Virus genome (UHGV): UHGV-1366437
Reading direction: 5' to 3' (one strand)
DNA: 39,224 nt
Origin: a virus
Part shown: piece after piece, positions 1-39,089 of the stretch
Numbering within the stretch: position 1 is the stretch's first letter
Layout of the letters: the number at the start of each line of letters is the position of its first letter
Program-made: the position numbers and the translations under genes
Notes under the pieces: generated by a model
Databases searched by the model: none
Seen by the model: only the letters and a program-made list of their open reading frames with translations
Told to the model about the DNA's origin: nothing

Positions 1-2
1 AA

Positions 3-37
3 AGAAAAGCCCGCAAGCGATTAACTTGCGGGCTTTA
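3..37 (-). terminator. Rho-independent terminator hairpin after the tRNA fragment; its shape would also work on the plus strand
   Basis: Perfect 11-bp inverted repeat AAGCCCGCAAG / CTTGCGGGCTT around a 6-nt loop. On the minus strand it is followed by TTTTCTTT, and on the plus strand by TTTATTT. Confidence 0.6.
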
Positions 38-39
38 TT

Positions 40-89
40 TGGTGGAGCATAGCGGGTTCGAACCGCTGACCTCTTCAATGCCATTGAAG
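40..89 (-). tRNA. Partial tRNA: the 3' ~50 nt (anticodon stem to CCA) of a tRNA-Ala(GGC)-like gene; likely the duplicated att core (attR-type copy)
   Basis: The minus strand reads CTTCA-ATGGCAT-TGAAG (anticodon arm, U33, anticodon GGC), AGGTC variable loop, AGCGG-TTCGAAC-CCGCT T-arm, ATGCTCC acceptor 3' strand with U70 (the Ala G3:U70 identity position), discriminator A and CCA. The sequence upstream (91-135) is AT-rich and cannot form the D-arm or the 5' acceptor strand, so the gene is truncated. Confidence 0.6.
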
Positions 90-135
90 AGATTTTCACC
101 AAATAATTATTTATAATAAATTAGTTATGAAAACA

Positions 136-160
136 TTGTCTTTTATTTGTCTATTATTTT
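136..160. repeat. Left copy of a ~24-bp direct repeat (TTGTCTTTTAT + TTGTCTATTAT tandem half-sites); putative integrase arm-type site
   Basis: TTGTCTTTTATTTGTCTATTATTTT here matches 39090..39112 (TTGTCTTTTATGTCTATTATTTT) in the same orientation with one indel. Both copies lie just inside the prophage ends. Confidence 0.45.
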
Positions 161-11866: not shown

Positions 11867-12480
11867 TTCCCCCTTCTGTATCTCAAAGACCTGTTCCGGA
11901 TCCCTCTTCCGGGGTGTTGGTCGTTACTCCACGATTGCACCATCTCCGCATGCAAAGCAGCCGGAAGAGCAACAGAATGATACTCCTGCCTGAGAGCCTG
12001 AGTGAGGTTGAAGTCACCCGTCACACCAGGAGCAATCTTGGCGGCCAACAAACACACAAGAGCCTCGATGAACAAAGGCGCATGATCCGGTAACTCATCC
12101 AAATCACGCGTCAAATACGTAATCCGCAACCGCTCCGGCCCGTCTCCCTCCACGACCAACTCCCGCCCAACCATTGACCAATGCGGTTCCCGGCACTCCA
12201 AAAGACGAATACAATCATCCGGCAAAGCGTAGTGCGTGCCAGTCTCCCGCGGGCACCCGCAAAGCATCTCCAAACGGGTTGCGAAACTCCACCGCCCGGC
12301 ACAGAGCAATTCATTCAGTGCGCCGGCATATTCCCGCACGCAATGCGCCCCCTGCGGCGATCCCTCCGCATACCTTGCCGCCCCCACGCGACCCAGAGCC
12401 AAATTATAAACGTCTTCCTTTTTCATAAGCTTGAAAGAAAACTGGGGACGGAGCCTCTTGAACCCCGCCCCCAGGAACAT
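11854..12480 (-). CDS. Tail adaptor / tubular protein A-like (gp11-like); probable true start at 12426 (MKKEDVYNL)
   Basis: About 190-208 aa, following the capsid block. A terminator-like hairpin (12441-12471) sits between the two candidate starts and favours the downstream one. Confidence 0.35.
   Translation of the reverse strand: MFLGAGFKRLRPQFSFKLMKKEDVYNLALGRVGAARYAEGSPQGAHCVREYAGALNELLCAGRWSFATRLEMLCGCPRETGTHYALPDDCIRLLECREPHWSMVGRELVVEGDGPERLRITYLTRDLDELPDHAPLFIEALVCLLAAKIAPGVTGDFNLTQALRQEYHSVALPAALHAEMVQSWSNDQHPGRGIRNRSLRYRRGNWSL
12441..12471 (-). terminator. Hairpin plus T-run after the capsid block (attenuator or terminator)
   Basis: Minus strand reads GGGGCGGGG-ttcaagaggct-CCGTCCCC followed by AGTTTTCTTTC, which is 7-8 bp of GC-rich stem then a T-rich tail. 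It lies downstream of the capsid and 147-aa genes. Confidence 0.45.
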
Positions 12481-12503
12481 ACAACAATAATACCACCAAA
12501 GAA

Positions 12504-13888: not shown

Positions 13889-13935
13889 AATAGTTTACCT
13901 TTCGTTGTGTCTGTAGTTTGCGGATTTTTTTCAGG

Positions 13936-13962
13936 ATAAAAACAACACCTTTGTCCGTTTCC
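13936..13962 (-). promoter_or_regulatory. Degenerate copy of the conserved motif GGACAA(A/C)GGTGT..TTTTTAT, about 50 nt upstream of the capsid gene
   Basis: Minus strand GGACAAAGGTGTTGTTTTTAT matches 14 of 15 core positions of the 16962 and 22298 copies (ACACC(g/t)TTGTCCGT on the plus strand). Confidence 0.4.
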
Positions 13963-14814
13963 TTAAATCCCCATCAACTGGTCATATTTCCTGTTCGCCA
14001 CAGCGTGCATCGGATCATTCACATCCATGTACGCCTTATGCAAAGGATGCGTTGGATCGGATTCAATCCGTCTTGCTTCTTCCATGCCGGAACGGAACTG
14101 TTCATTGCCAAGCCCCTTCACGGCACCCTCGCCCAAAAGCTCGGAAACCTTGTAGAACACCTTCACCAGGGCGGCATTGTCATCAATCCCGCGCTGGGAA
14201 AGAACGGAAGGATCCACTCCCGCCATCTGGCAAAGCTTCTTCGCGGCAACCGCTGCGGAATCACAATGCGCCTGGAAGTCCTGTCCCCACTCGGACTGAA
14301 GATCCTTGAAGCTCTTGCCGACTTCCTGCAGGTAAGACTGCTCGGCCGCTGCATCAGCAACAGACTGGGCCTCCGTGAAATCCTTGACCAGACCAGCCAT
14401 GGCACCCGGAGCGATACCGTAATCCACGCCAGCCTTCGCCAGCAATGCCTTCATGGAATCGTCCATTCCTTCCGGCGCGTCGAACTTGTATGCTTCGGGC
14501 GCATCCGGGATTCCCATTTGCTTCCTGAACTCAGACAGCTTCTGAGGATCACTCAGATAATCCGCCAGAGAAGCACCCTCAGCCGGAGGAGTACCAGTAG
14601 TGCCAGCATCAGCAGGCGGCTCGCCACCAGCAGGAGGAGCATCATTGCCGCCGCTAAACAGCTTGGGAACCTCAGCAGCTCCCTCACCACCAGCCGGAGG
14701 AGTTGCCGGAGGCGTGTCGCCAGCCGGAGGAGGTGCAGAGCCGCCACCTTCACCGCCGCCAGTAGGAGCTTCTTCACGGCAGAACATATTACCCATCAAT
14801 AAGCGTCGTATCAT
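13963..14814 (-). CDS. Putative scaffolding protein (283 aa)
   Basis: The N-terminal 90 aa are a Pro/Gly/Ala-rich low-complexity region with PPAGG repeats. The rest is acidic and helical. It sits between portal and capsid, as gp9 does in T7. Confidence 0.45.
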   Translation of the reverse strand: MIRRLLMGNMFCREEAPTGGGEGGGSAPPPAGDTPPATPPAGGEGAAEVPKLFSGGNDAPPAGGEPPADAGTTGTPPAEGASLADYLSDPQKLSEFRKQMGIPDAPEAYKFDAPEGMDDSMKALLAKAGVDYGIAPGAMAGLVKDFTEAQSVADAAAEQSYLQEVGKSFKDLQSEWGQDFQAHCDSAAVAAKKLCQMAGVDPSVLSQRGIDDNAALVKVFYKVSELLGEGAVKGLGNEQFRSGMEEARRIESDPTHPLHKAYMDVNDPMHAVANRKYDQLMGI

Positions 14815-15073
14815 CTTCTTCTATTTCTTTGTTTGTGTTATTCGCCAACAGTTCGATGTAGGCAAAAACTTCCTTGTAGGCATCACGCCTCATGGCATCC
14901 AGAGGATCAAATGCTCCCCGGCTTCCTTGAAAAGCAGGCAAATGAACCTCAAACTTCTTCGCCAGATCCTTCAGGACGTATTTCCCATCACTAGAGCCAA
15001 AAACGCGTCTGTAGACACGCTTCTTCTGGACGAAATACCTTTCCAGCTTTCCAAGTTTGTCTTTGATATTCAT
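14789..15073 (-). CDS. Hypothetical protein (94 aa)
   Basis: Small basic ORF between portal and scaffold. Its start overlaps the portal stop as ATGA. Confidence 0.4.
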   Translation of the reverse strand: MNIKDKLGKLERYFVQKKRVYRRVFGSSDGKYVLKDLAKKFEVHLPAFQGSRGAFDPLDAMRRDAYKEVFAYIELLANNTNKEIEEDDTTLIDG

Positions 15074-16881
15074 AAGCTAATTCCAGCTTCCCTGGCCTGC
15101 GCCGCGGCATCGACGCCATCCCTGGCCGCCTTTGCCACAGTTTGAGCAGTTTCCATCTCTTGTTGTTGAGCGGCAGCCTGTGCCTGCTGCTGTTTCGCCG
15201 CCTGTACCTCTTCTTCATCATTAAGCAAATCTTCCGGAGCGTGGCTTGACCTCCACTTCGTTCGGACAAGCTTGTCCATGTCGATATTCATCAGTACTCC
15301 CGGGTCAAACTGGGCTAGCATGGCCGCGAACTGAATACCCCTGTCAATCCCGTCGCTCTGGAGCAAGTCAAGGGCAAGGGACATCTTCCCGGAATAAGTC
15401 ACAACAGGCTCAAGAACTTCGGTTTCTCCTCCATGCCCGACAAAAATGGCTTCACGGGGAGGAGGCCCGAATTGATCGAATTCTCCGGCCCTCATCAAAA
15501 TAGCGAACAAACGTTCGTGCCATGGCCGGAAATCCGATACCATCAATGTAAACGCCGGAGCAAAGGAAAGCACCGTCTCGCTCTGACGGGCAATAACCTC
15601 GGTTGCCGTCATCTCTCGATCCACATTGCTGACAATCCTGAACACATCCGCATAGAAAGCCTTCCGGATCTTCTCCTCCGTCTTTTCAATGCGGTCCGCC
15701 CCAATGTCATACCGGGCTTGCGTGCCCAGCTCGCGAGGCATATTGAGCCGGGCCGCCTCTTCGGAAATAACCGTCATGCCTCCCGCCCTCATATCCACCT
15801 CTCCCGATTGCTGGGCAAGGATGGCAAAACGCGGATTAACTGACAATTCGCCAAGGGAATCCATTGTGTCGTCAAGGAACAGCTCCCGGCGGATATCCGG
15901 GAACGCAAACAAGCCGGGAGGCAAACCATACGGGCCTGTCCCCCACTTCAGGAACCTTGTGACCAGATAGGGAAATTCGTAGTATCCCGATTCCTCAATA
16001 ACAATTGCATCCTCGACGGATACATAAATACTCTGAAACTGCCTGTTCATGGGGTCTGTCTCCCCCGGCTTCCACTTTTTGCGCGGCCGCACAAGATGGA
16101 TGAACTCAAAGCAGATATCATACTTCTTCCGGCTGTCACCCAGGGCTTCCCGGACTTTCTTCCCAAGCCTTTCCTCCCCCCATTCATCCGCCGCCTGCTT
16201 TGCCGAAAACTTGAACCGCCGCCCCAAAGTATCAATGACGCCGGAAGAATTTTCAGCAGCCGCATAGGTCTTGCAGGGGATATATTTGAAAGAAATCGTC
16301 CTGGAATTCTCGCCCCCCATATACAGGCAGCCAATGCCATAAAGGCACCTGTCAATATACATCTCGTGAGCTTCGGGATAGAAATTGCTTCGCCCCAAAA
16401 TCGACCACGTATATTCCGAGCATTGCGTATACCATTTGTCAGAAGGCTCTGACTTAACCTGGCAGTTATACTTGAACCACACCTGGTTGAACGGCGTGAT
16501 ATGCGTCAGGTGTCCGGCGGCAAGAGTATTGAGGGCATCACACGCCACAGACGAGAATTCATAAATGTCATCCTCGGGAATCTGCGATTGCGTTTCATCC
16601 GTCCCGCGTCTCGGCATGATACGCCGGCGCAGCTTGTCCCAGATGCCTTCCCATGGACGGCGGAGATCCTCCAGTCCCTCCATCGTCTTAATGACTTCCT
16701 TCGCGCGCAAATCATCCATATCAGCCAAGAGTTCTACGGAGTTGATTGCCGTTTCCGTCAGTCGTGCCGCCTCCGGAAAGATAACTTGCTGCCGGCTTCT
16801 TGATTGTGGATGCCAGACCGCGCTTCTTCTTGAGTTTGTCCTGAAGATTATCTTTTGCATCCAACTTGGAATCACCGGCAT
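15070..16881 (-). CDS. Putative portal protein (603 aa, or 549 aa from the Met at 16719)
   Basis: Large protein at the head of the scaffold-capsid block with a Gln/Ala-rich C-terminal tail. Assigned by synteny (T7 gp8 position). The internal start at 16719 abuts the stop of the small upstream gene. Confidence 0.5.
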   Translation of the reverse strand: MPVIPSWMQKIIFRTNSRRSAVWHPQSRSRQQVIFPEAARLTETAINSVELLADMDDLRAKEVIKTMEGLEDLRRPWEGIWDKLRRRIMPRRGTDETQSQIPEDDIYEFSSVACDALNTLAAGHLTHITPFNQVWFKYNCQVKSEPSDKWYTQCSEYTWSILGRSNFYPEAHEMYIDRCLYGIGCLYMGGENSRTISFKYIPCKTYAAAENSSGVIDTLGRRFKFSAKQAADEWGEERLGKKVREALGDSRKKYDICFEFIHLVRPRKKWKPGETDPMNRQFQSIYVSVEDAIVIEESGYYEFPYLVTRFLKWGTGPYGLPPGLFAFPDIRRELFLDDTMDSLGELSVNPRFAILAQQSGEVDMRAGGMTVISEEAARLNMPRELGTQARYDIGADRIEKTEEKIRKAFYADVFRIVSNVDREMTATEVIARQSETVLSFAPAFTLMVSDFRPWHERLFAILMRAGEFDQFGPPPREAIFVGHGGETEVLEPVVTYSGKMSLALDLLQSDGIDRGIQFAAMLAQFDPGVLMNIDMDKLVRTKWRSSHAPEDLLNDEEEVQAAKQQQAQAAAQQQEMETAQTVAKAARDGVDAAAQAREAGISL

Positions 16882-16936
16882 CCGTAATCGGCGTTGGAGT
16901 AGGGGCGGGAGGTGGTGCGGATTGTTTGAAGCTCAT
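16721..16936 (-). CDS. Small Pro/Gly-rich hypothetical protein (about 71 aa)
   Basis: ATG at 16936 lies 25 nt downstream of the conserved 24-nt motif. The stop is adjacent to the portal internal start (TGAtATG). Confidence 0.35.
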   Translation of the reverse strand: MSFKQSAPPPAPTPTPITDAGDSKLDAKDNLQDKLKKKRGLASTIKKPAASYLSGGGTTDGNGNQLRRTLG

Positions 16937-16937
16937 G

Positions 16938-17324
16938 TCACAAACATGAACGACCGCCGCAAAAATAAAAAATACACCGTTGTCCGTCCACCTTGTGCAA
17001 TCGCTCATCACCCCTAAAACACCGCTGGAAAGTCACAAAAGGGAACATCCCGGCCAGCCCCAAAACATCCGCCACTCCCGACAAATCACCGGCAGCATAA
17101 TGAATGTGCCAGGCATCGCACGCATCAACCGGGAACACATGTTCCGGATCCACCACATAACGAAGAGGCGCACCCGAAACAACCGGGCGCGCCATCAAAA
17201 CCAACTCAGGAGACCAGACGCACACCCCGGAACGCTCGTGCAAATACCTGTCAACATCCAGATACCGCCCTGAGTCGGAGTAATACGCCAGTGTCTCCTC
17301 AATCGCGTTCATCATGGCGCACAC
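16938..17324 (-). CDS. Hypothetical protein (128 aa), possibly tail-fibre associated
   Basis: ORF immediately after the short tail fibre gene. Its 3' end contains the conserved motif. Confidence 0.4.
   Translation of the reverse strand: MCAMMNAIEETLAYYSDSGRYLDVDRYLHERSGVCVWSPELVLMARPVVSGAPLRYVVDPEHVFPVDACDAWHIHYAAGDLSGVADVLGLAGMFPFVTFQRCFRGDERLHKVDGQRCIFYFCGGRSCL
16962..16985 (-). promoter_or_regulatory. Conserved 24-nt motif GGACAACGGTGTATTTTTTATTTT (minus strand), copy 1, upstream of the head-gene block
   Basis: 24/24 identical to 22298..22321. The next ATG is 25 nt downstream. TATTTTTG at its 3' end resembles a Bacteroidota-type -7 element. Confidence 0.5.
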
Positions 17325-17971
17325 ACAGCACCTCCGGTAACAATACGCAAGGTACCAGTCCCAATCTTCGGACTCGACAGAGCAATTATGCCACCTGCAT
17401 TGTTTCCATTAAGGGTGATTCCGGATCCTGAACCCGGATCCCCCGAAGACACAGCAGCATAATTCGCATCCAGGACAAGCAGAGATTTCCCGTTCGCACT
17501 CTTCAATGTGAAATCTTCCTGGTGGCCGTTAAGCCAATAAGTCAACGCACCATTGGACACAGACATGCCATTACCCGGACGGGACACGCCCAATGTGGAG
17601 TTTGTCGCAACTGGCACCGATATCTTGCCCGTGGTATCAACAGTCAAATTGTCGCCAATCTGCACAATACCCGCCTTCGTCTTCGTCGCCTTGTCAGTCC
17701 ACTTCACGCAGTTGTCCGCCACATTCGTATTCGTCGCATTAAGGGCGGTCTGTAACTCCGAATCCGCCGCTTGGAACTCACTACGAAGATTCGCCTCCGA
17801 TGTTGTCATTTCGCCACGAAGAGTCTGCGCCGTCTGAGAAACAAGCTCATTCGCCGATGATTGAAAATCGCCGTACTTGCTCAGAATCAATGCCGCCGCT
17901 TCCGCTGCTGTCTTGGCTGATGCGGCCGCCGCCGCTGCGGCAGCCGATGCCGCTTGATCAAACGTTGCCAT
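17312..17971 (-). CDS. Short tail fibre / receptor-binding protein (219 aa)
   Basis: Poly-Ala N-terminus (AASAAAAAAAASAKTAAEAAA) and a Gly/Ser/Thr-rich beta C-terminus (GDPGSGSGITLNGNNAGG), typical of fibres. Confidence 0.5.
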   Translation of the reverse strand: MATFDQAASAAAAAAAASAKTAAEAAALILSKYGDFQSSANELVSQTAQTLRGEMTTSEANLRSEFQAADSELQTALNATNTNVADNCVKWTDKATKTKAGIVQIGDNLTVDTTGKISVPVATNSTLGVSRPGNGMSVSNGALTYWLNGHQEDFTLKSANGKSLLVLDANYAAVSSGDPGSGSGITLNGNNAGGIIALSSPKIGTGTLRIVTGGAVCAP

Positions 17972-18746
17972 GGTCTTCCTCCTTTTTATTGTTTCCTTGT
18001 GATTCTTCTTCCCGCCTGGCTCGCTCCAGCATCAACCGTTGCGCTTCAAGCACCTGATCCTTGCCAATGCCGGGATTCCCCAATGTCATCATCCAGATTT
18101 TCCCATCTTTTTTGAACAGGCGATCAATATACTTTACGCGTTCATCACCCTCATGCTTGTAGGCAAACCCTCCCGTTCTCCCACCGAGACGGCCATCATA
18201 TAAAATTTGGCAGTGGTAGTTCAGCATGAGCGAACACGCATAAGCAAGGGAGCCAATAGTGACATCCTCATGCGCCCCCTGCAAAATCGCAGACGGAGAC
18301 GGAAGCCACCTTCGAACAAATGACAGGACATCAGCGCGGATCAAATAAAAATACCCTCCGAAAAGGTAATCCGCAACCTGTGCGGCCATAAATCCAAACC
18401 CCGCGCCAACTGCCTTCTGGAGAAAATCCTTGTCAACAAACAAACTGTCCGCATCCGTCTTGATGAGGACTTCATCCGTTTTCAGGTGCTTCGCATATAC
18501 ATCCAGCATCCCAATGATGCACCCCGGACCATTCAAATTTCCGTAACGCGGAAAATCCGACTGCTCATACAATACCCCCATTTCCTGCAACTCCCTGGCG
18601 CATTTCGGAGATATGGGGTTCTCCTTGTCGTCAATCAAATGAATCGGAGCATCCGGGAACACCCAGCGGATGTTCTCAATACGCCCGGGAAGCAACTTCG
18701 CGTCCCCCCGGTAACAAAAAACAAAAAAACGTGGCTTCATCATCAT
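17958..18746 (-). CDS. Putative GT-A-fold glycosyltransferase (262 aa) placed between the two tail-fibre genes
   Basis: N-terminal beta-alpha-beta (RFFVFCYRGD), HLIDD and TDAD (DxD-like) motifs. No signal peptide. The start ATGATGATG lies 6 nt after the tail fibre stop. Confidence 0.35.
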   Translation of the reverse strand: MMMKPRFFVFCYRGDAKLLPGRIENIRWVFPDAPIHLIDDKENPISPKCARELQEMGVLYEQSDFPRYGNLNGPGCIIGMLDVYAKHLKTDEVLIKTDADSLFVDKDFLQKAVGAGFGFMAAQVADYLFGGYFYLIRADVLSFVRRWLPSPSAILQGAHEDVTIGSLAYACSLMLNYHCQILYDGRLGGRTGGFAYKHEGDERVKYIDRLFKKDGKIWMMTLGNPGIGKDQVLEAQRLMLERARREEESQGNNKKEEDHGNV

Positions 18747-18752
18747 AAAAAA

Positions 18753-20885
18753 TTAGATATCAAGAGGCGTTGCATACGGATTGATTGGAGTATCATTATA
18801 AAAAAGACCATTCGCAACCATCCTGATCTCTGAATTGTTATCAATTTCAAACACTCCCGATCCCATACTCAGAGACACATGATCCTGAGTCTGTACCTCA
18901 AAATCAAAAGACTCCACATGTACTTTCCTGCTCGAAAAACCAATCGTGATCGTGTCCGAATCAGAATCATATTTCAAAATATTATATCCGCTGTGGTCGG
19001 CAATACTCACATTCCCTCTGTAGTTCGAAAGATCAACGCTTCCGCTTCCTCCACCGCCAGAAGCATTCAGCGTATTACCCGAAAAACTCAAATTCGTGCC
19101 AATTCCGAGCGCACCATGTTTCCCGCCCAACTCAGTTACAGCATGTTCGGCAATATTATCCGTCGTAATCACATTTTCCGGTACCGAACCGCCGCTTCCG
19201 GCTTGGGCAACCGTGGCCGCATCCGTGGGAGCTGTGCCTGAAGCGACATTGAGAATTTTATGAGACCTCATGTCCAATCCTCCTTCATACAGGACCGCAG
19301 TCCTACCGGTAAACGCCAAGACTGGATCAGGTGATACTCCTGTAGTAGTCATAGCTTTTGCTGACAATTGAGCTCCATTAACTTCCCCGTTATTCATCAC
19401 TAACCAGCCATGGTAAACCCCATCTGCGGCTGTTGTCACTGCGCCTATTTGCACAGGCGTTCCTGTTTTCGTGTAATAAATACCGCTCTCATTGATGATG
19501 CCATTCTTGAACACGGCCTCACCGGCAGAAGTGAAATTGACTAATGTAGTTATACGGTTGGCATAGAAAATAGAATTTTTATCAAAACGCGCAAGTTGTA
19601 TACCAGTCTCATTATCAAATGACAGGTTACCAATATCCTGCATTTGAATGGTAATCGTTTTTTCGGTATTTGGATGGGTGAAAGTAATCCCGCCTTCCGT
19701 CACCATCCGAGTTTTGAAAGTGTTATTTCCCGTAAACACATTATCGCCATCCAACAGAGGAACATTCCTCAAAAGCCCCTGCATTTGAGAAAGGATACCC
19801 TCACAAGCCGTCTTGCTGTCCGCCGCCGACTTCGCACTGTTAGCCGCATTTGTTTCCGACGTTTTAGCGTTTGATGCTGACGTAGCCGCCGCTTTTTTGG
19901 AACTGTCCGCCGACGTCGCACTGTTAGCTGCATCCATCGCGCTATTAGCTGCCTCCGTTGCTTTAGAGGCCGCAGTCGCCGCCGCATTTTGTGCTGCCTC
20001 CACCTGATCACCAACCCCGGCAACCCCAGCCACCAAATCCGCCGCAATCTTTGCCTGGTTTGTGCTCACAACCGCACTATTTGCCGATGCTTGTGCCTGC
20101 TGATAAGCGAATTGTTTGAACAACTCACAATCCGCCCTACTGCTTGCCGCCGAAGTCGCCGCATCACTGGCCGTCTGAGCATACTGTTGACCGTAAGTCG
20201 CCCAATGCAGAGCCGAGTATTTAGCCGTCGCACCTGACCCAGTCACGGGTAAATCACGCGGGTTAATCGCCCATTTCTGAGCCAGTGATTCACTGTTTGC
20301 CGCATTCGTGGCCGATGTAGCAGCATTGTTTTTAGACTGTTCGGCGGCTTCCGCGCTGGACGCCGCATCGTTTGCCATGCCTGCCATCTCATCCATCTTG
20401 TCTGACATGATGTCATCCACCTGAGACTTGACCTCCTGTCCGAGTTCATCCTTGGTGACGTATGACGGCGCAGGCACAGGTACACCCTCATCACCCTTAA
20501 TGATGTCGTTTGAGACAACCAGCTTCAATAGCTTGGTCTTGTACACGGTATCCTTGCCTGAAAATTCGAACTGGGCATCCAGCGTCACAGACTTCTCATC
20601 GCCTATCAGGTTCAAGAGGTTTGTCGTATTGAGCTGCAGGACACCCTTGTAACAGCCGGATTCGTCCAAAACAAAAGTATCGCAGTACACCATAATCGGC
20701 TCACTGGAAGCATATTTCCCGGCTTCTTTCGCCCCGAACTTAATGGCAAGCCCCGGATCATACACTTTATCCCAGTTCGGGCCATGGAACCACACCTCCA
20801 ATTGCAACTTCTCCCCGCGCTGCAACTGCAACCTGCTCGGCTGCACATCCTCTAAATCATAGCATACGTCAATCTTCATCTTCAA
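18753..20885 (-). CDS. Long tail fibre protein (710 aa)
   Basis: N-terminal globular domain, a long Ala/Ser/Asn/Thr-rich coiled region with imperfect DNA-level repeats at 19815-19933, and a beta-rich C-terminal domain. Confidence 0.6.
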   Translation of the reverse strand: MKMKIDVCYDLEDVQPSRLQLQRGEKLQLEVWFHGPNWDKVYDPGLAIKFGAKEAGKYASSEPIMVYCDTFVLDESGCYKGVLQLNTTNLLNLIGDEKSVTLDAQFEFSGKDTVYKTKLLKLVVSNDIIKGDEGVPVPAPSYVTKDELGQEVKSQVDDIMSDKMDEMAGMANDAASSAEAAEQSKNNAATSATNAANSESLAQKWAINPRDLPVTGSGATAKYSALHWATYGQQYAQTASDAATSAASSRADCELFKQFAYQQAQASANSAVVSTNQAKIAADLVAGVAGVGDQVEAAQNAAATAASKATEAANSAMDAANSATSADSSKKAAATSASNAKTSETNAANSAKSAADSKTACEGILSQMQGLLRNVPLLDGDNVFTGNNTFKTRMVTEGGITFTHPNTEKTITIQMQDIGNLSFDNETGIQLARFDKNSIFYANRITTLVNFTSAGEAVFKNGIINESGIYYTKTGTPVQIGAVTTAADGVYHGWLVMNNGEVNGAQLSAKAMTTTGVSPDPVLAFTGRTAVLYEGGLDMRSHKILNVASGTAPTDAATVAQAGSGGSVPENVITTDNIAEHAVTELGGKHGALGIGTNLSFSGNTLNASGGGGSGSVDLSNYRGNVSIADHSGYNILKYDSDSDTITIGFSSRKVHVESFDFEVQTQDHVSLSMGSGVFEIDNNSEIRMVANGLFYNDTPINPYATPLDI

Positions 20886-21195
20886 TCAGTGACTTGTTGG
20901 CCGCCTGAGCCAAAACACAGGTCGGGCATTTGTTAATAAGCTGAGTCATCAACTCTTCAATCCGGGCATCCTTGCGGTTCAGTCTCTCCTGAAACTCTTC
21001 TCTCTCAGCCTTCATCTGCTTCTCGTGAAATTCGCGTGATTCCTTCTGGGATCTTATCACGGTTGTAACAATCCAGGCCATCGTACCCAATGCTCCGAAC
21101 CCGGCAAATTCGGAAAGGATAGGCATATCCGTTACCACACTGCTCACGCCAGCAGCGGATGCCATAATCCAGGTCATTGTACAGATGTTCGTCAT
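20869..21195 (-). CDS. Putative holin (108 aa, two TM helices plus a charged coiled C-tail)
   Basis: Two hydrophobic segments (WIMASAAGVSSVV, FGALGTMAWIVTTVI) followed by a highly charged C-terminus. It sits next to the amidase gene. Confidence 0.45.
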   Translation of the reverse strand: MTNICTMTWIMASAAGVSSVVTDMPILSEFAGFGALGTMAWIVTTVIRSQKESREFHEKQMKAEREEFQERLNRKDARIEELMTQLINKCPTCVLAQAANKSLIEDED

Positions 21196-21713
21196 TGTAA
21201 GTAATCCTTAATACCCAAAGCAATTTGCTGGGCGATTGTGTTAGGTGCCGTGCGCATGATTTCGGCATCATAGAAGTTACTGATAAAGCCGCATTCGACG
21301 AGCACCCAAACGGGTTTGGTTTGCTTCAGGACGGCGAGATTTTCACGCTTGACGGTCTCCTCTGCGCGTCCCGGAAGGATTCTGCAAAGCCTGTCGGCGA
21401 TGGATTTTGCCGCTTTTTGACCGGATGCCGAGTAGTAGCAGACGTGGGCACCATGTGCATTCGGATTGTCGGAGCAATCGCAATGGATGCTGATACCCAA
21501 CTCATAACATCCCTCATTGGCGGCTTTGATTGTCTTATTCAGGTCGTCGGAATTCGAGAGTTTAGGAAAGTCGATGACATCCGTCTTATGCCCCATTTCT
21601 TCCAGCATCACAGCTAAGTGGGTGCCTATCTTCGTTGCCACAGCATGTTCTTCCAACCCATTGCCGAGTGCTCCCGTTCCTTCCGCGTGTCCTATATCAA
21701 TTGCAATTTTCAT
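21192..21713 (-). CDS. N-acetylmuramoyl-L-alanine amidase (endolysin, Amidase_3-like); start taken at MKIAIDIGH
   Basis: The MKIAIDIGHAEGTGA zinc-binding start is typical of MurNAc-LAA amidases. The ORF track extends to 21785, but that extension overlaps the intergenic inverted repeat. Confidence 0.6.
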   Translation of the reverse strand: MKIAIDIGHAEGTGALGNGLEEHAVATKIGTHLAVMLEEMGHKTDVIDFPKLSNSDDLNKTIKAANEGCYELGISIHCDCSDNPNAHGAHVCYYSASGQKAAKSIADRLCRILPGRAEETVKRENLAVLKQTKPVWVLVECGFISNFYDAEIMRTAPNTIAQQIALGIKDYLQ

Positions 21714-21832
21714 AAATTGAACATGTAAGCTTTTCTTACAAGTTGCCCCGGCCTGAACGCGTTTTTGTGCAGTCTGTCCGACCACACTACAGGCCGGGGC
21801 TTTTCTCTCTCTTTTGCACTATTCCGAGAAAA

Positions 21833-22279
21833 TCACTTGCCCTTTTGAACAATCACGGGGGGATCAATGATGCTTGGCGTCGGCTGGCTGAAGCTGAAGA
21901 AGCCCTTGCGTATCACCATGGCGGAACCATCTTTAGTGATAACAGTGGCATCCGGTGTAACGTGGACATCATGCCCGCACCCGGTAAGTCCCAGGGTGGC
22001 CAGTCCGCCAATAACGGCAGCCGCAAGCCACAGCAGGATCTTTTTCAAGCCCGATTCGCCATCGGCTTTGCTGCCAAGGTAGTCTTTAATGTCTCCAAGA
22101 GCGTACTTGCCGATGATCGGAAGTGACTTTTGAGCAAGCACTTTGATTGCATTTCGTTGGGTTTCAGTCAGCTCACCCCAAGGCTTCCACGGCTTTTCAA
22201 CAGCGTTTTCAGCAGCTAGGACGGCGTAAAACTCCTTGGCAATGGCCTCGGTATGGTCGCATTTCGTAGTCATGACCAT
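21833..22279 (-). CDS. Lysis-associated membrane protein (148 aa) with an in-frame internal lipoprotein signal (MKKILLWLAAAVIGGLATLGLTGC if started at a TTG)
   Basis: The ATG at 22279 is 18 nt downstream of the conserved motif. Residues 76-100 form an n-h-lipobox (LTGC) signal followed by a 46-aa Pro-containing tail, which resembles an o-spanin. Confidence 0.45.
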   Translation of the reverse strand: MVMTTKCDHTEAIAKEFYAVLAAENAVEKPWKPWGELTETQRNAIKVLAQKSLPIIGKYALGDIKDYLGSKADGESGLKKILLWLAAAVIGGLATLGLTGCGHDVHVTPDATVITKDGSAMVIRKGFFSFSQPTPSIIDPPVIVQKGK

Positions 22280-22297
22280 ATCATGACCATATCTCCG

Positions 22298-22321
22298 AAA
22301 ATAAAAAATACACCGTTGTCC
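22298..22321 (-). promoter_or_regulatory. Conserved 24-nt motif copy 2, between the large terminase stop and the lysis cassette
   Basis: Identical to 16962..16985. It lies 18 nt upstream of the ATG at 22279. Confidence 0.5.
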
Positions 22322-22322
22322 A

Positions 22323-23987
22323 TTATCTCCACTTCAGCCGCAAAGCACCGGGGCCAGTCTTCGGCGTCTTATGCTTCGCGTTGACCATCCCAGATTGGTA
22401 TGAGTCCACAAAGCCATTTGCAAATGCCTCGGCAAAAGTCCTGAACGCATCCGCAGAATGAGAACAAATATCATGCAAGGGCATTTCCCGCATCACCCCA
22501 TTAGTTCCCGGAGGCTGAGATCTGTAATTCATCAGAGCATTCAGCCCTGAAATATACTCAACACCATTAGCAACAACAGGTTCACCACATCGTTCATGAA
22601 ATACGCAATCCTTCAACAAGTCTCTTGTCGAGCTAATGCCCTGCCAAATATCCGGAGTCCGCGGAACAACCTTTGTTATGAATCCCGCTTCCTGCAGACG
22701 TTGTTCAAAGCTTGTCTTTTCCCAATCTCTCTTAACAGCATCATGAGGGAGGAAAACCCGTCGGATCATTCCGTACTTGCGCTCCCACTCACGCAGAAGC
22801 TGGACATAAAATCCTAAACCTTCGTTACTTGCCTGAAAGTGATCAAGCACTCGATGTTCCGTCCTCATTTCCTGAAAAGCCCAGATAGACATTGAGTCAC
22901 TCATCCCGATATCAAACGACACGTAAAAGGGAGCCATTTTGTCAAACTCAAACCGGCAATTAAGCCGTCCCTGCTCGCTCAATTGGCTGAAAATCGCTCC
23001 ATAAATCGCGCCTTCGGCTTGACGATCAAAAGCTTCTTGCGGGGTACTCGGATACTCCTGACGCATCGAATACCCCTGTGTCCTCTCCATCGACACATAC
23101 CAGGCAATCTGCTCCATCGACAACTCAATCCCAGCCTCCTTCAGGCTCGCAAAATACCTCCTCTGATCCTCCGTCATCCTTACCTCTCCATTGACAGGCA
23201 ATTGATATTCAGGACTTCTCCACCACGGGAAAAAGAAAAACTTGAAATCCAACTGCGACAAATCCCGCCCCGACATTTCCATCGCCTTTTTCGTCATCTC
23301 GTAGTTGAGACCAAATCTTCCCCCTTCGTGCGTCGATTCGCGAATAACAATCCCATCAACAGGCACAGAATTAATGGCTCCAGTCAGAATTTCCCTTGCT
23401 CTCATCGGGTCATGGATTGAAACATAGCCCATTTCCGACACATGAAGAAGCTGGAGAGTTCTTCCACGCATCGACATTCCGACTTTAACAGACGACCCAT
23501 TTTTGAAGCACATCTCGGTTTTGCTTTTCGATTCAACCGGGCACCACTTTTTTATCTCCGCTCCAACATGAGCCAAAGCAATATCCTCATCAGTTGGATC
23601 CATAGGGAGATAGTCAAGCATGTCGTATGCCAGATTAATCTTCCCAAGCTTCTGCTGCGCATCCGGAATTGTCCTGTCAATAATTCCTGCTGAAAAATTG
23701 GAATTATAAATCATAGCATCAAGAATCAGCAACGCGATCAAGGTCGAAAACCCAAGCTGACGAGCCTTCAAGATATCATTCCTGTACCAGATGCTGTCAT
23801 AAAAACTCTCCTGTTCATCCTTCATCCGGAAGCGAATCAACTGCCCGTTCTTGTCAGTGATCCAATAAAGATGGTTCAGTCTCCATTTCCTGTCTTCCAG
23901 GAGTTCTTTAAGTTGCTCAGACTCGCTCATGGTTCTTTTTGATGATAGGACTCGATAAAATTCCAGCCAGCACGGAGCCGACCACAC
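22323..23987 (-). CDS. Terminase large subunit (554 aa; alternative start at 23930)
   Basis: Immediately downstream of the small subunit. Walker-A-like ARQLGFST, Walker-B-like LLHVSEMG, and a C-terminal nuclease-like region with acidic residues. Confidence 0.6.
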   Translation of the reverse strand: MWSAPCWLEFYRVLSSKRTMSESEQLKELLEDRKWRLNHLYWITDKNGQLIRFRMKDEQESFYDSIWYRNDILKARQLGFSTLIALLILDAMIYNSNFSAGIIDRTIPDAQQKLGKINLAYDMLDYLPMDPTDEDIALAHVGAEIKKWCPVESKSKTEMCFKNGSSVKVGMSMRGRTLQLLHVSEMGYVSIHDPMRAREILTGAINSVPVDGIVIRESTHEGGRFGLNYEMTKKAMEMSGRDLSQLDFKFFFFPWWRSPEYQLPVNGEVRMTEDQRRYFASLKEAGIELSMEQIAWYVSMERTQGYSMRQEYPSTPQEAFDRQAEGAIYGAIFSQLSEQGRLNCRFEFDKMAPFYVSFDIGMSDSMSIWAFQEMRTEHRVLDHFQASNEGLGFYVQLLREWERKYGMIRRVFLPHDAVKRDWEKTSFEQRLQEAGFITKVVPRTPDIWQGISSTRDLLKDCVFHERCGEPVVANGVEYISGLNALMNYRSQPPGTNGVMREMPLHDICSHSADAFRTFAEAFANGFVDSYQSGMVNAKHKTPKTGPGALRLKWR

Positions 23988-24411
23988 TCACAGTTGTCTC
24001 CACCTTCTCCGGCTCATAAGCACCGTCCATACGATTTAGCTCTTGTATAGCCTGAATTTTTGAAGGCATTTTGTACTTCGTGGACGAAAATGTGTCCCCT
24101 TGTGTCTCTGTGTACTCCTGACACAGATCTGACTCACCATCAACGGAATTGATAGGAGTTCTAACCACACGGGACAGCCATTCCATGCGTTCCTGCTTGC
24201 TCATAATGGCTTTTTTGTCCAATTCGGCGTTTAATTCATCAATATAGCGACAAATTTCATCATCCTTGGACAACCTGCTTGCCGCCTTAGATGCCGCCGG
24301 ATTGCTCAAATCCTTGCGCTTGAACGCCTTACGATATGCGTCCGGTTTGGACAATCTGTCCTCGACCAAGAGTCTGCAAAACTCCCTCTGCTTATCCGTC
24401 AATCCTGCCAT
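23917..24411 (-). CDS. Terminase small subunit (Terminase_2 / P27 family)
   Basis: The N-terminus LTDKQREFCRLLVEDRLSKPDAYRKAFKRKDLSNPAASKAASRL is the characteristic helix-turn-helix of P27-type small terminase subunits. Confidence 0.7.
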   Translation of the reverse strand: MAGLTDKQREFCRLLVEDRLSKPDAYRKAFKRKDLSNPAASKAASRLSKDDEICRYIDELNAELDKKAIMSKQERMEWLSRVVRTPINSVDGESDLCQEYTETQGDTFSSTKYKMPSKIQAIQELNRMDGAYEPEKVETTVSVVGSVLAGILSSPIIKKNHERV

Positions 24412-24697
24412 CGAACAACCTCCTTACAAAGCCATCGCCCTGCTCACTGAGCCTCCACACACGGGCCATCTTCGTTGCAGTCGTCGCCACACCAGACGGC
24501 ACCACATCCCCAATCTCACAGAGCCTCTTGACCGTCTTAACCACACCTTCGGCGCTCAGCCCCGTCAATCCCCCGATCTCCTGCACCGTAGAGGGTGCAA
24601 TCGCCAGCACAGACAGCACCTGCACCTGGCTAAGCGTCAGACCACTAGCACGCGCTCGGCGCAATAACTCACAAAAATCAGAACTCCCGAATATCAT
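24392..24697 (-). CDS. Winged-helix (MarR-like) DNA-binding protein (101 aa)
   Basis: LTLSQVQVLSVLAIAPSTVQEIGGLTGLSAEGVVKTVKRLCEIGDV matches the wHTH pattern. Confidence 0.45.
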   Translation of the reverse strand: MIFGSSDFCELLRRARASGLTLSQVQVLSVLAIAPSTVQEIGGLTGLSAEGVVKTVKRLCEIGDVVPSGVATTATKMARVWRLSEQGDGFVRRLFDGRIDG

Positions 24698-24799
24698 AAC
24701 AAAATGATACCCGGGAGTCCTTCAAGTTCAATTCACCAATATACGGCGGTATTCATGCCACATGGTGAGATTTAACTACAATAAATCTGCTCTGCGATT

Positions 24800-25315
24800 T
24801 CAGATTCTGTGTTCTTTTTTAAGTTTTTCCATGTATTGCAAAAGTTTTGTTTTATGCAATGTAAACCTAACAGTCGCATAAAAAACATATTCACAAAGAA
24901 TACCGCTTTCAAACAAAACAATTTCTAATTTATATCCATCAATAAAAATATATTTTCCTCTTATATATTCTGTTATAAAAACCAACCATTTGTCCGCTTC
25001 ATCTTTTTTGTCAGTAGCGATAAGAATCTCTCCGTGTAAAAGTGGATTTTTTAGTATGTATTTGACTAATGAATCAACATACGATTTTATCCTATCTTGC
25101 GTTGCAATTGTATCAACTGTTTCGTTGTCAGATTTTTTAGCATCAGCTACTACAAAACGTGTTGGATGATTCTTATCCCCTATAACCAGGCCCGCAGCAT
25201 CAGGCATAATGTCTTCACCGAGATTTAAATTCTTTGTACCTCGAGTATCCGCAGTACCGCCAAAAACAACATCAACGATAGAGGCAACTATTTTTTCATG
25301 TTTAGAACCAGGCAT
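24800..25315 (-). CDS. Stand-alone PD-(D/E)xK nuclease-fold protein (171 aa) in an AT-rich (about 33% GC) insertion
   Basis: The motif GEDIMPDAAGLVIGDKNHPTRFVVADAKK contains E...PD...(17 aa)...DAK, the canonical restriction-endonuclease-like core. Local GC is about 20 points below the flanking DNA. Confidence 0.45.
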   Translation of the reverse strand: MPGSKHEKIVASIVDVVFGGTADTRGTKNLNLGEDIMPDAAGLVIGDKNHPTRFVVADAKKSDNETVDTIATQDRIKSYVDSLVKYILKNPLLHGEILIATDKKDEADKWLVFITEYIRGKYIFIDGYKLEIVLFESGILCEYVFYATVRFTLHKTKLLQYMEKLKKEHRI

Positions 25316-25412: not shown

Positions 25413-25898
25413 TTACTTCGCCTCGGAATACGTCGTTAACCGGGCTTGTCTCTCATGATGTAAACGTTCTAACTCTATGATAGAATATCCGCTGACCTCC
25501 CTGATCCCGCGCCTGCCCCTCACGCGAAACTTGCGCTCCGTCAACCTACCGTGAGTCACAAGATAGTAGAGCCGCGCCCTGATTACTCCGAGCATCACCT
25601 CCGCCTCACGGGTTGATACCCACCCATTCGGCAGCCCCTCGACAAGATCAGGTCTGGAGTTGGCGAGAGAATTAACCTTGTGCCTGTTCCAATACAGGAC
25701 GCCCTTAACACTCACGCAACGCACCTTGTGCCTGGCAAGATACGCGCGTACCCCGCTCATGCTTATCCCAAGCAATCGCGCCGCATCCCTCGTCGTCATG
25801 CCCCAGTCTGGCGGTTCGCTCATTGATTCACTCACCTTCACCTTGCGCCGCGGAGGGTCGGGGAAGATAATACCTGGATGATTAATCCGTTCAGTCAT
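25413..25898 (-). CDS. DNA-binding protein with two tandem excisionase/MerR-type HTH repeats (161 aa)
   Basis: Two similar segments, TTRDAARLLGISMSGVRAYL and STREAEVMLGVIRARLYYLV, each followed by a basic wing. Confidence 0.4.
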   Translation of the reverse strand: MTERINHPGIIFPDPPRRKVKVSESMSEPPDWGMTTRDAARLLGISMSGVRAYLARHKVRCVSVKGVLYWNRHKVNSLANSRPDLVEGLPNGWVSTREAEVMLGVIRARLYYLVTHGRLTERKFRVRGRRGIREVSGYSIIELERLHHERQARLTTYSEAK

Positions 25899-25928: not shown

Positions 25929-26657
25929 TCACCTTGCACCTCCTTTTCGGTAGCTTCCCCAGTCTAGCGAAACAAAGCTTCCAGTGCCCTCGACTCTGGA
26001 CGCCACAGACCTCGGCAATGTCGCCACGGCATCATTGCCTACTTTGTTGGTCAGTATCAGCACCGGCATCATGTCGGCATACCGATGATCAATCAGCGTG
26101 TTCAGGATCATGTTTTCCCAGTCTCCAGCCGATCTATCCTGGATCTCATCAACAATCAGCAACGACACTTCCCGGAACTCTTCGAGATAGTCTTTCTCGC
26201 CAACTTCTGACTGCTTCGCCCAGGTCGCTTTTAACCCGCAGAAAAAATCAGCTGCCCGAACATATCGGACATCTCGCTTTCGTTCCTGCCAGACCTTGCC
26301 AATGGCAGCGGCCATCACCGTTTTCCCGGTTCCGCAGTCGCCAGCCAACACGGCAATACCCTTACCGTCCATGATCTCCAGGACTCGCTTCAGCTTCGCA
26401 TGCCACCCGTCGCCCTTCAGGTTTCCATGGCAGACAGCCTCCGCCTCACGTCGTCCAAAGCCAGCCCTGACAAGACGCCTGACATCTGGAGTGCCGTTCT
26501 CAGCTTCGTATCGCGCATTTTCTTCTGCTTCAACACGTCGGTTCAGCTCCTCAATGCGAGCAGCTTCATCGTCTGATATGGCATGCTCCATGAGCTTTTT
26601 CATCCGCTCTTCAAACCTTTGTTCTTCGAGTATTTTCTTTAGATCATTCATTCCCAT
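25929..26657 (-). CDS. DnaC/IstB-like AAA+ helicase-loader ATPase
   Basis: Walker A VLAGDCGTGKT and Walker B LLIVDEIQD. It sits directly downstream of the replication initiator. Confidence 0.7.
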   Translation of the reverse strand: MGMNDLKKILEEQRFEERMKKLMEHAISDDEAARIEELNRRVEAEENARYEAENGTPDVRRLVRAGFGRREAEAVCHGNLKGDGWHAKLKRVLEIMDGKGIAVLAGDCGTGKTVMAAAIGKVWQERKRDVRYVRAADFFCGLKATWAKQSEVGEKDYLEEFREVSLLIVDEIQDRSAGDWENMILNTLIDHRYADMMPVLILTNKVGNDAVATLPRSVASRVEGTGSFVSLDWGSYRKGGAR

Positions 26658-27448: not shown

Positions 27449-27921
27449 ATCAGCTCCTCCTTTCTGAAAACAAGAAATATCCCATTTCCTTTGCCGCCGA
27501 CGCGACTGCCAAACATGGCTTCCTTCCCGGCAAGAGGTAGTACATCACGCAGAGCAATCTGGACGTCAGCCCACTTGAAGATCAAAAATCCACCCGGCTT
27601 CAGAACGCGAAAACACTCTGAAAATCCGTTCCGGATCGTCTCTTTCCAGTCGCCATCGAGCGCACCATATTTCTGCCTCATGTAAGCCGTTTTGCCAACA
27701 CTCTTGAGGTGAGGTGGGTCGAAAACAACCATGGCAAAAGCATCGTCTTCCCAGGGCATATTGGTGAAATCGGCGTCAACATCAGGATCAACAACAATGG
27801 TTCTTCCGTCGCAACACGTTAATGTTTCGCGCCTGTAGTCAGCATACAAAACATCTTGGTGTCTTTTTTGAAACCACATCATGCGGGTTCCGCAACAGGC
27901 ATCAAGTATGTCTTTCATCAC
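27433..27921 (-). CDS. Small SAM-dependent (DNA) methyltransferase (162 aa) with a DPPH motif
   Basis: ILDACCGTRMM (motif I-like) and MVVFDPPHL (motif IV, DPPY-type variant). It is short for a complete N6/N4 methyltransferase. Confidence 0.45.
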   Translation of the reverse strand: MMKDILDACCGTRMMWFQKRHQDVLYADYRRETLTCCDGRTIVVDPDVDADFTNMPWEDDAFAMVVFDPPHLKSVGKTAYMRQKYGALDGDWKETIRNGFSECFRVLKPGGFLIFKWADVQIALRDVLPLAGKEAMFGSRVGGKGNGIFLVFRKEELICQQD

Positions 27922-28118
27922 TCAACCTCCTTTCCTTCAAGATCCTTCAAAATCCTGTCCCTTCTCCGCAGGGCGGTTTCAGGGTCTTTCGTCTGCAAAG
28001 AATACCGCTTCCGGTAAATGCGGCATTCGTCCACAAACGTCAGGTTGATATAATAAACTTCCTTTTGCCTGTAAACGTGGTGGAATTTCCGGGACGTGTC
28101 AGAGAGTTTTAGCTTCAT
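27918..28118 (-). CDS. Hypothetical protein (66 aa)
   Basis: ORF with ATGA overlap to the downstream methyltransferase gene. Confidence 0.35.
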   Translation of the reverse strand: MKLKLSDTSRKFHHVYRQKEVYYINLTFVDECRIYRKRYSLQTKDPETALRRRDRILKDLEGKEVE

Positions 28119-33376: not shown

Positions 33377-33413
33377 TTCTCAGATTGCGTGACGGTCACA
33401 CCGTGCCAATGGA
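33377..33413. promoter_or_regulatory. Operator region of the cI/cro switch: 11-bp perfect palindrome GTGACgGTCAC nested in the 8-bp inverted repeat CGTGACGG ... CCGTCACG (three GTGAC half-sites)
   Basis: Direct reading of the 105-bp divergent intergenic region. Confidence 0.55.
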
Positions 33414-33447
33414 TAACCGTCACGAGAAAACAACTATAGAATTTTCT

Positions 33448-33849
33448 ATGAACGAGCAAGGAAAAACTACAGATATTTCTATATATCTAGCTCGACTCAA
33501 CTCTCTTATTCGTGAGAAGTCGTTAAGTCAAAGTGAATTGGAACGAATTACAGGCATTCGTCAAGCGACGATCTCAGACTATACTAAAGGAAAATCTATA
33601 CCGTCAGCTGAACGTTTTTTCCTAATTTCATCTGCTCTTGGTGTCTCCATGGACTACCTCTGGGGTGTCTCTGATGTCCCCATCCAAGCTACCGACACAG
33701 CAAACATTCAGGAATCCGAATGGCAGCAGAGAGCTCAAACAGCAGAACAGAAGCTCAAACACCTCAAAAGCCTTCTCTCCGACGTTGGCTCTGACATCGA
33801 AGCCCTCGGCGGAACCATAGGGAAACTCCTCAAATTCATCTCCGAATAA
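33448..33849 (+). CDS. cI-like XRE-family HTH repressor (no peptidase domain)
   Basis: LSQSELERITGIRQATISDYTKGKSIPSAERFFLISSALGVSMDYLWG is a classic XRE HTH. The C-terminal part is a coiled coil. Confidence 0.6.
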   Translation: MNEQGKTTDISIYLARLNSLIREKSLSQSELERITGIRQATISDYTKGKSIPSAERFFLISSALGVSMDYLWGVSDVPIQATDTANIQESEWQQRAQTAEQKLKHLKSLLSDVGSDIEALGGTIGKLLKFISE

Positions 33850-33851
33850 TC

Positions 33852-34679: not shown

Positions 34680-34736
34680 CGATATAATTTTCTGAATAAA
34701 TCTTATTAAAAAAATATTCGACCCAAAAAATAAATA

Positions 34737-39078: not shown

Positions 39079-39089
39079 AGGCGAATTCT

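Follow-up and report, generated by a model that had tools for sequence, protein, structure and literature searches.

A 24-nucleotide motif repeated at late gene junctions of a temperate podovirus with an Akkermansia-like host: possible activator-dependent late promoters

Virus genome UHGV-1366437, a 39,224-nucleotide (nt) stretch of DNA referred to below as the window, is a complete, circularly permuted temperate podovirus genome of 39.2 kb; the subject of this report is a 24-nt motif that it carries in three copies, designated A, B, and C, among its late genes. The prophage occurs in scaffolds of human-gut metagenomes. On a 113-kb metagenome scaffold (L235), window bases 89-1 run straight into bases 39224-27858 at 100% identity. 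The junction of the integrated copy is at a tRNA-Ala(GGC) gene, with gatC, gatA, a diacylglycerol kinase gene, and a GH95 gene as neighbors, and the attachment site is the 3′ part of that tRNA gene followed by a terminator (window 1-153 plus 39079-39224; L235:9740-9854). The named relatives of the portal and capsid proteins are all from Akkermansia, Akkermansiaceae, or Verrucomicrobiales, and because of these relatives and the tRNA-Ala/gatCA/GH95 flank the host is assigned as Akkermansia-like. This corrects the Bacteroidota assignment in an earlier reading of the sequence (here called the original prediction), which the same relatives and flank contradict; nothing was found that points to Bacteroidota.

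The early region encodes RecT, a PDDEXK nuclease, methyltransferases, a replication initiator, a DnaC-like loader, an integrase, and a CI-like repressor. Searches of Pfam, PHROGs, and NCBIfam gave no match in the complete genome to an RNA polymerase (PF00940 or other) or a sigma factor. All late genes are on the minus strand, beginning with a block that includes a winged helix-turn-helix (wHTH) gene and the terminase genes (Table 1). They are tightly packed: the 24.5-kb late region has just 284 non-coding bases, spread over eight gaps, and two of the three largest of these gaps are filled by the motif.

Table 1. Late gene blocks, motif copies, associated signals, and related sequences. Positions are those of the window unless a contig (L number) is named; protein lengths are in amino acids (aa).
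Feature	Position	Strand	Description
First late block	wHTH gene 24392-24697; terS 23917-24411; terL 22323-23987	minus	Ahead of copy A
Block between copies A and B		minus	146-aa gene, amidase, holin-like gene, tail fiber, three unknown genes
Block between copies B and C		minus	71-aa gene, T7-type portal (PF12236), Bbp19-like gene, scaffold/protease
Block after copy C		minus	Major capsid, 147-aa gene, terminator, tail tube A and B, internal virion proteins, 2298-aa protein
Motif copy A	22298-22321	minus	One base past terL stop; core GGACAACGGTGT at 22321-22310, T-rich tract at 22309-22298
Motif copy B	16962-16985	minus	Within last 14 codons of a 128-aa gene (16938-17324), ahead of 71-aa gene and portal
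Motif copy C	13933-13956	minus	GGACAAAGGTGTTGTTTTTATCCT; between scaffold/protease gene and major capsid gene
-10-like hexamer CATGAT, site A	22280-22285	minus	Motif positions 37-42; then 6 nt and CA with A at 22273; predicted leaderless start
-10-like hexamer CATGTT, site B	16943-16948	minus	Motif positions 38-43; then 6 nt and CA at ATG 16936; predicted leaderless start of 71-aa gene
-10-like hexamer CAAACT, site C	13915-13920	minus	Motif positions 37-42; predicted start A 13908, 20 nt before capsid ATG
MarR-like wHTH protein, 101 aa	24392-24697	minus	Pfam MarR_2, E = 2.5e-7; first gene of terS-terL operon
Canonical sigma-70-type promoter TTGAAC-16-TATCAT	24704-24731	minus	-10 six nt before wHTH-gene ATG; kept in L122 and L232
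Intrinsic terminator hairpin plus TTTTCTTTC	12442-12474	minus	After capsid and 147-aa genes; kept in L119 and L122; closes first unit of the block after copy C
Akkermansia cassette loci	L233:10001-11388; L234:3854-5232; L133:9992-12778; many of L127-L206
Lineage L119-121			Portal 95-98% identical to window; sites B and C covered
Lineage L122-124			Portal 86% identical; sites A, B, and C covered
Lineage L230			wHTH 89% identical; sites A and B covered
Lineage L231			wHTH 94% identical; site A covered
Lineage L125/126			One of two contigs from toad gut; portal 52% identical; sites B and C covered

The motif, GGACAACGGTGTATTTTTTATTTT, is present as two exact 24/24 copies (A and B) and one degenerate copy (C), which matches at 19 of 24 bases overall and at 11 of the first 12, the part called the core below. 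All three are on the coding strand, each at a gene junction. Matches to the 24-mer with three or fewer mismatches are not expected by chance: 100 dinucleotide-preserving shuffles yielded none. The two identical minus-strand copies of the original prediction are thus upheld; its third copy is also real, but the 14/15 core match claimed for it was slightly generous, 13/15 being counted for ACGGACAAMGGTGTW. In the whole-genome search that it suggested, a weight matrix derived from all instances picks out these three sites and no others (scores 27, 27, and 26.8; next best 16.5). A weak look-alike carrying an extra base (GGACAAATGGTTGGTTTTTAT, score 11.8, window 24975-24995, minus strand), inside a 171-aa gene, is probably there by chance: the gene that holds it is not conserved, and the downstream geometry is different. 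The motif-to-start-codon distances originally given were right: the ATG at 22279 is 18 nt away, the one at 16936 is 25 nt away, and that of the capsid gene at 13888 is ~48 nt away. For the gene after copy A, the conserved start is the second ATG, at 22273 (ATGACT), rather than the one at 22279. That gene had been taken for the first lysis gene, but it has no recognizable lysis function, the amidase being the next gene.

In each related lineage recovered (Table 1), the core, GGACAAMGGTRT, is found at the same junctions wherever the contig reaches them. The close lineages keep the whole 24-mer, with core position 7 (A/C) as the sole variable. Apart from this position, copy A is identical in L122, L230, and L231 despite terL identities of 43-44%; copy B is kept in L119, L122, and L230, and copy C in L119, L122, and L125. 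The L125 version of copy B is GGACAAAGGTATTATTC, and this alone is common to the two L125 sites and to the window, the flanks being unalignable. At site A, the window and L122 share an unbroken run of 37 bases around the motif, which stands there as a conserved island, with a swapped terL on one side and a 71-92% identical gene on the other.

These genomes are mosaics. Among the window, L122, L230, and L231, which are otherwise 85-100% identical, terL (43-44% at the amino acid level) and terS (48-74%) have been exchanged; the DnaC-like loader gene (25929-26657) is 44-47% identical in L230 and L231 but 98% in L122; terL of L231 is foreign save for its last ~30 nt, which are window-like; and L122 and the window are 72% identical in the capsid and 85% in the scaffold. 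Joints of this kind adjoin the motif itself (a 100% identical motif against terL at 43-44%, terL of L231, the capsid and scaffold of L122), and it could conceivably be a module-boundary sequence only, a short identical stretch serving as a crossover point between related phages. Three direct copies in one genome would invite deletions, however, and neither the survival of the core alone in the otherwise unalignable L125 nor the fixed geometry downstream (described below) would be explained. Since crossovers are to be expected at any conserved functional site, the mosaic joints more plausibly result from conservation; a purely recombinational role seems highly improbable.

Distant relatives (portal ~40%, capsid 64-68% identical) have neither the same nor an analogous repeated motif, and it was not found upstream of the 64-68% identical capsid genes; an exact 24-mer search of IMG/VR gave no match, a 14-mer search gave chance matches only, mostly in coding sequence, and a metagenome scan turned up no further lineage. 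The original prediction had raised the possibility that the motif is frequent in the host chromosome. This was not seen: the motif is missing from ~1.3 Mb of other Akkermansia prophage and host DNA, where a 9-base version of the core, GGACAANGGT, has two matches only, both in unrelated coding contexts. Judged by these sequence comparisons, the motif is a functional cis element that looks specific to this lineage rather than a signal used by the host at large, and such specificity points to a reader encoded by the phage.

When the 13 motif instances in the window and its relatives are aligned on the first core base, positions 1-12 are the core, positions 13-24 are T-rich, and positions 25-36 are free to vary between sites and lineages. 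Past this variable stretch, the layout is again fixed. A hexamer with A in second and T in sixth position (xAxxxT) is at motif positions 37-42 or 38-43 in all 13, in the versions CATGAT, GACAAT, CATGTT, CATGCT, CAAACT, CAAAAT, and AAAACT; six bases past it, at 48/49 or 49/50, every instance has the dinucleotide CA. At sites A and B, the A of this CA opens the conserved start codon (ATGACT at 22273; ATGAGC at 16936). Every lineage has the same core-to-ATG distances, 49 or 50 for these two sites and 69 for site C. Within this register the hexamer itself changes: at site A, L122 has GACAAT in the same position, in sequence that is otherwise different; at site B, L119 has CATGAT and L125 has CATGCT; and at site C, L122 has CAAAAT and L125 has AAAACT, with a block CGCAAA..ACACA kept in all lineages. 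Between the A at 13908 and the capsid ATG there is a Shine-Dalgarno-like AAAGG. The aligned instances show no -35 match and no conserved -35 element.

In the window (22274-22297 and 16937-16961) and at the same sites in L119, L125, and L230, paired CATG-containing repeats precede the starts behind copies A and B; their versions are ATGGTCATGAT/ATGGTCATGAC, TCATG..CATGA, and CGCTCATGA twice. The upstream repeat is read here as the -10-like hexamer, but the pair could alternatively be a small hairpin holding the start codon.

The interpretation that we favor, with about even confidence, is that the three copies are a shared control element, forming the upstream halves of three activator-dependent late promoters in a temperate Akkermansia podovirus. 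A shared late promoter or activator site was one of the options in the original prediction, and with the conserved junctions and the fixed hexamer it is still the best reading. Each promoter would be made up of the 12-bp core, a T-rich tract of ~12 bp, a free stretch, a weak xAxxxT element 36-37 bp past the first core base, six bases, and a start at the A of CA. The core would then be at about -48 to -37, beside a poor -35, which is the usual location of activators that contact RNA polymerase at promoters of that kind. Because there is no -35, the host sigma-70 polymerase would be unable to start alone and would need a phage factor on the core. At sites A and B, transcription would begin at the A of the ATG and yield leaderless messages, serving the 146-aa gene, amidase, holin-like gene, and tail fiber from site A and the 71-aa gene, portal, Bbp19-like gene, and scaffold from site B; at site C, it would begin 20 nt before the capsid ATG, in a unit consisting of the capsid and 147-aa genes up to the terminator.

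The -10 could also be within the motif. It would then be TATTTT at positions 12-17 (TATTAT at 11-16 in the toad-gut lineage), with GGACAAMGG directly upstream at about -23 to -14, a start near positions 24-26 (22298-22296, 16962-16960, and 13933-13931), and leaders of ~25 nt and ~45 nt. In favor of this, the core is followed by TATTTT or TATTAT in 12 of the 13 instances, a conserved -35 is lacking, and the conservation of the T tract together with the core would be accounted for. Such a promoter needs an unusual factor reading a single extended element, for example a phage sigma-like protein, but the database searches above found no sigma-like or polymerase-binding protein. The TA step shifts among positions 11, 12, and 13 relative to the fixed core, and window copy C has TTGTTT at positions 12-17, its first TATNNT being TATCCT at 19-24. 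The xAxxxT-N6-CA register and the missing Shine-Dalgarno sites behind copies A and B would also be left unexplained, and we regard an internal -10 as unlikely.

A more specific suggestion, made in the original prediction, was that the 3′ end of the motif is a Bacteroidota-type -7 element. Bacteroidota housekeeping promoters have TTTG at -33 and TAnnTTTG at -7; they resemble the present sites in having an A/T-rich element close to the start and downstream genes without Shine-Dalgarno sites. One of the three copies does end in a matching octamer, TATTTTTG, but the other two have TATTTTCG and TATCCTGA, L125 lacks it, and it is conserved neither among copies nor among lineages; a TTTG at -33 is missing, Shine-Dalgarno sites are frequent in the rest of the genome, and the Akkermansia-like host is from a different phylum. 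The probability of this reading is negligible. Several other kinds of signal were considered and rejected. By eye, the 13 instances have no conserved partner element for a sigma-54 (-24 GG/-12 GC) or extracytoplasmic function-type (-35/-10 at 16-17 nt) promoter; a promoter on the opposite strand would have its -10 where there is no conservation; and a frameshift site (TTTTTTA), considered since copy B is within an open reading frame (ORF), does not fit copies A and C, which follow stop codons.

The start sites predicted for the favored late promoters bear on translation as well. Strong Shine-Dalgarno sites (AGGAGG, GGAGGT, GGAGGA, AAAGGAGG) are ahead of many genes in the window, with AGGAGG, GGAGGT, or GGAGGA before at least seven; the earlier premise that Shine-Dalgarno sequences are absent from this element was wrong and is corrected here. 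The only genes without such a site are those directly behind copies A and B, a gap that fits leaderless transcripts. For Akkermansia muciniphila, a Cappable-seq study of bacteria from the mouse gut reported promoters of the -35/-10 kind and put leaderless transcription starts at ~10% (PMC4782308). The promoter of the wHTH gene (Table 1) has the same 6-nt spacing between -10 and ATG, and leaderless starts therefore appear to be in use in this phage. Upstream of the wHTH gene, L230 and L231 differ from the window and carry TTGACT/TTGACA instead. Within the window's promoter region (24680-24731), a palindrome with 14-nt arms (CTCCCGGGTATCAT/ATGATATTCGGGAG) spans the -10 and the wHTH start codon and is probably an operator.

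At the RNA level, a terminator or structured RNA at the motif was rejected: fold z scores are -0.8 to +0.4 relative to shuffled sequence, there is no Rfam match at gathering score, the terminator scan calls no site, and no copy has a hairpin before its T tract. A role that depends less on structure could be imagined in read-through from the terminase operon, with the U-rich tract as a ribosome (S1) loading enhancer, or the core as a site for an RNA-binding protein or nuclease. There is no terminator before any copy, and the motif is thus probably transcribed from upstream; the U-rich tract is 18-25 nt before two starts without Shine-Dalgarno sites. Besides the absence of structure and of an Rfam match, however, a U-rich enhancer needs no invariant GGACAA.GGT, copy C is 48 nt ahead of a gene that has a Shine-Dalgarno-like site of its own, and the conserved hexamer register downstream would be unexplained. 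Such a role is quite unlikely.

One canonical hairpin terminator is at 25390-25360; another, conserved, follows the capsid and 147-aa genes (within 12427-12503), because of which the start of the tail-tube-A-like gene is placed at ~12426 (190 aa) and not at 12480. The original prediction offered an antiterminator site as an option beside the promoter, and the motif could be envisaged as a loading or pause site for a processive antiterminator, acting through the non-template strand in the manner of ops/RfaH and repeated to renew the modification along a 24-kb operon. Such a site might be expected to look like this one: a G-rich element of 12 nt and then a T-rich tract prone to pausing, in three copies on the coding strand of a long co-directional array. 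But the sequence differs from the ops consensus GGCGGTAGnnTG, no NusG-like gene was found among the phage ORFs, and there are no terminators between copies to override, the only clear one coming after the capsid unit; in addition, the fixed start-codon distance and the -10-like hexamer would be unnecessary. Antitermination is accordingly considered very unlikely, and this part of the original prediction less likely than its promoter option.

If the three sites are activator-dependent late promoters, some protein must read the core. None of the known late-activator families (Mor/C, Ogr/Delta, RinA/ArpU, Q) is encoded, as judged from Pfam, PHROGs, and NCBIfam. The best candidate is most likely the MarR-like wHTH protein, on the strength of its conservation: its gene is 89-94% identical in all four motif-bearing lineages with a known regulatory region, and was kept while its neighbors (terS, terL, and the DnaC-like gene) were swapped, such that its conservation tracks the motif and not the terminase type. 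A search for homologues found only four very close proteins in the protein collection. Of the two regulators put forward in the original prediction, this one is kept as the candidate; the other, a tandem-HTH protein (25413-25898) that is excisionase-like, is disfavored, since in L230 and L231, which have the exact motif, the 10 kb upstream of the wHTH gene did not contain it. A 171-aa protein (24800-25315) was rejected as the factor, the gene being absent from L122.

In the fullest version of the proposal, the 101-aa wHTH protein would be a positive late switch, made together with the terminase from its own canonical sigma-70 promoter; bound at about -43 to the 12-bp core, which is not a palindrome, it would switch on late messages without leaders. 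Being co-produced, wHTH protein and terminase would come first, and the lysis, portal, and capsid genes would follow. As a whole this circuit is doubtful. If it is correct, no such scheme of late transcription would have been described in a phage before, and phages of Verrucomicrobia would gain their first defined regulatory circuit.

Several observations weigh against the promoter interpretation or against this choice of factor. The -10-like hexamers are weak (CATGTT, CAAACT), and at sites A and B the start codon forces part of the pattern (the A of ATG). The T tract carries a TATTTT of its own, a possible real -10, and its strong conservation in the main lineage is not explained by the model. 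The lineages are few and mostly close relatives, and the constant spacing could in part reflect shared descent. No copy has a terminator just ahead of it, and transcription reading through from the terminase operon could be enough to express the genes, with no need of extra promoters. MarR-type proteins usually bind palindromes as dimers, but the core has no dyad beyond an ACA..TGT symmetry that is gone in L125 (TAT). The co-occurrence of wHTH gene and motif rests on four closely related lineages, at least three of which also have in common a 66-aa DUF6538-like protein (27918-28118), a further candidate factor. Finally, an AlphaFold model of the wHTH protein made without an alignment has a predicted local distance difference test score (pLDDT) of 53, too poor for use.

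The division of the late genes into separately promoted units can be compared with the distribution of their homologues. The blocks behind copies B and C match stand-alone cassettes in Akkermansia chromosomes, one of portal, Bbp19-like, and scaffold genes and the other of the capsid and 147-aa genes; most of these have a hairpin terminator at their end where read, which fits the two blocks as separate expression units.

The cassettes are dispersed (Table 1). Homologues of the capsid and 147-aa genes (68% identity) form an isolated two-gene cassette among yidC, rnpA, lpxC/fabZ, and maf, while the portal-Bbp19-scaffold homologues (~40% identity) are located elsewhere, in L133 beside cas3/cas4/cas1. 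Neither type has the other within 10 kb (capsid search: tblastn, E ≤ 1e-5). Capsid homologues number 910, and a one-genome-per-species collection has 167 portal loci. They look like domesticated phage structural genes, perhaps akin to a gene transfer agent, and not like prophages; a literature search on Akkermansia and “gene transfer agent” found nothing relevant.

The arrangement proposed for the late promoters has parallels in several phage systems, none of them exact. The phage Mu late promoters (Plys, PI, PP, and Pmom) are activated by protein C, and their dyad site is read by a Mor/C-family protein. As in Mu, a shared upstream sequence would be found at several late promoters with a usable -10 and a poor -35, the activator site being over the -35 region and centered in the -40s; as in Mu, one promoter would precede lysis genes and others head genes, with the activator coming from an earlier transcription unit. 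Unlike Mu, the core is not a dyad, no Mor/C protein was found, the candidate reader is a MarR-like wHTH protein, and leaderless messages are predicted at two of the sites.

The late promoters of P2, 186, and P4 depend on the zinc-finger activators Ogr, B, and Delta, which recognize TGT-N12-ACA centered near -55. The likeness to these phages, which have four late operons, is in the conserved activator site, the poor -35, and the operon boundaries at packaging, capsid, lysis, and tail blocks; the difference is that no Ogr-like protein was found in this phage.

T7-like podoviruses offer a third comparison: a conserved sequence of ~23 bp is repeated before structural blocks, with one copy directly before the capsid gene and a terminator after it. 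The structural genes here are themselves T7-like (portal PF12236, tail tube A and B, internal virion proteins), and the capsid unit ended by a terminator resembles T7 gene 10 and its terminator. Unlike the T7-like phages, this temperate phage encodes no RNA polymerase of its own; because the genome is complete without one, the host enzyme would be required.

The position of the wHTH gene is in turn reminiscent of the RinA/ArpU/LtrC systems of Gram-positive siphoviruses, in which the gene for a small DNA-binding regulator is immediately upstream of terS. Those regulators act on a single promoter before terS, however, whereas the motif here is behind terL and further downstream, and the candidate protein matches MarR_2 and not ArpU.

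The regulatory principle is thus not new: several well-studied phages use multiple activator-dependent late promoters. Most likely the motif is an ordinary kind of element with a new sequence, in an unstudied host phylum and with leaderless messages probable. To our knowledge, almost nothing is known of how phages of Akkermansia, a medically interesting gut bacterium, regulate their genes. If the late promoters are as predicted, the window provides a testable parts list (three predicted starts, a 12-bp core, and one small candidate activator) that could be used to follow Akkermansia prophage induction and to build inducible expression tools.

Some features of the window outside the promoter question were also noted. 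The 2298-aa product of the last gene in the virion block (window 154-7050) has a PBECR3 nuclease domain (barnase/EndoU/colicin-like) at residues 1038-1149 and is probably an ejected polyvalent protein. A ParE/YoeB-Phd toxin-antitoxin pair adjoins the integrase gene in related copies. On the plus strand, a block of low GC content (0.33-0.36) at 33385-36194 contains the CI-like HTH repressor gene followed by 275-aa and 485-aa genes without assigned function, and may be a defense or moron cassette expressed in lysogeny.

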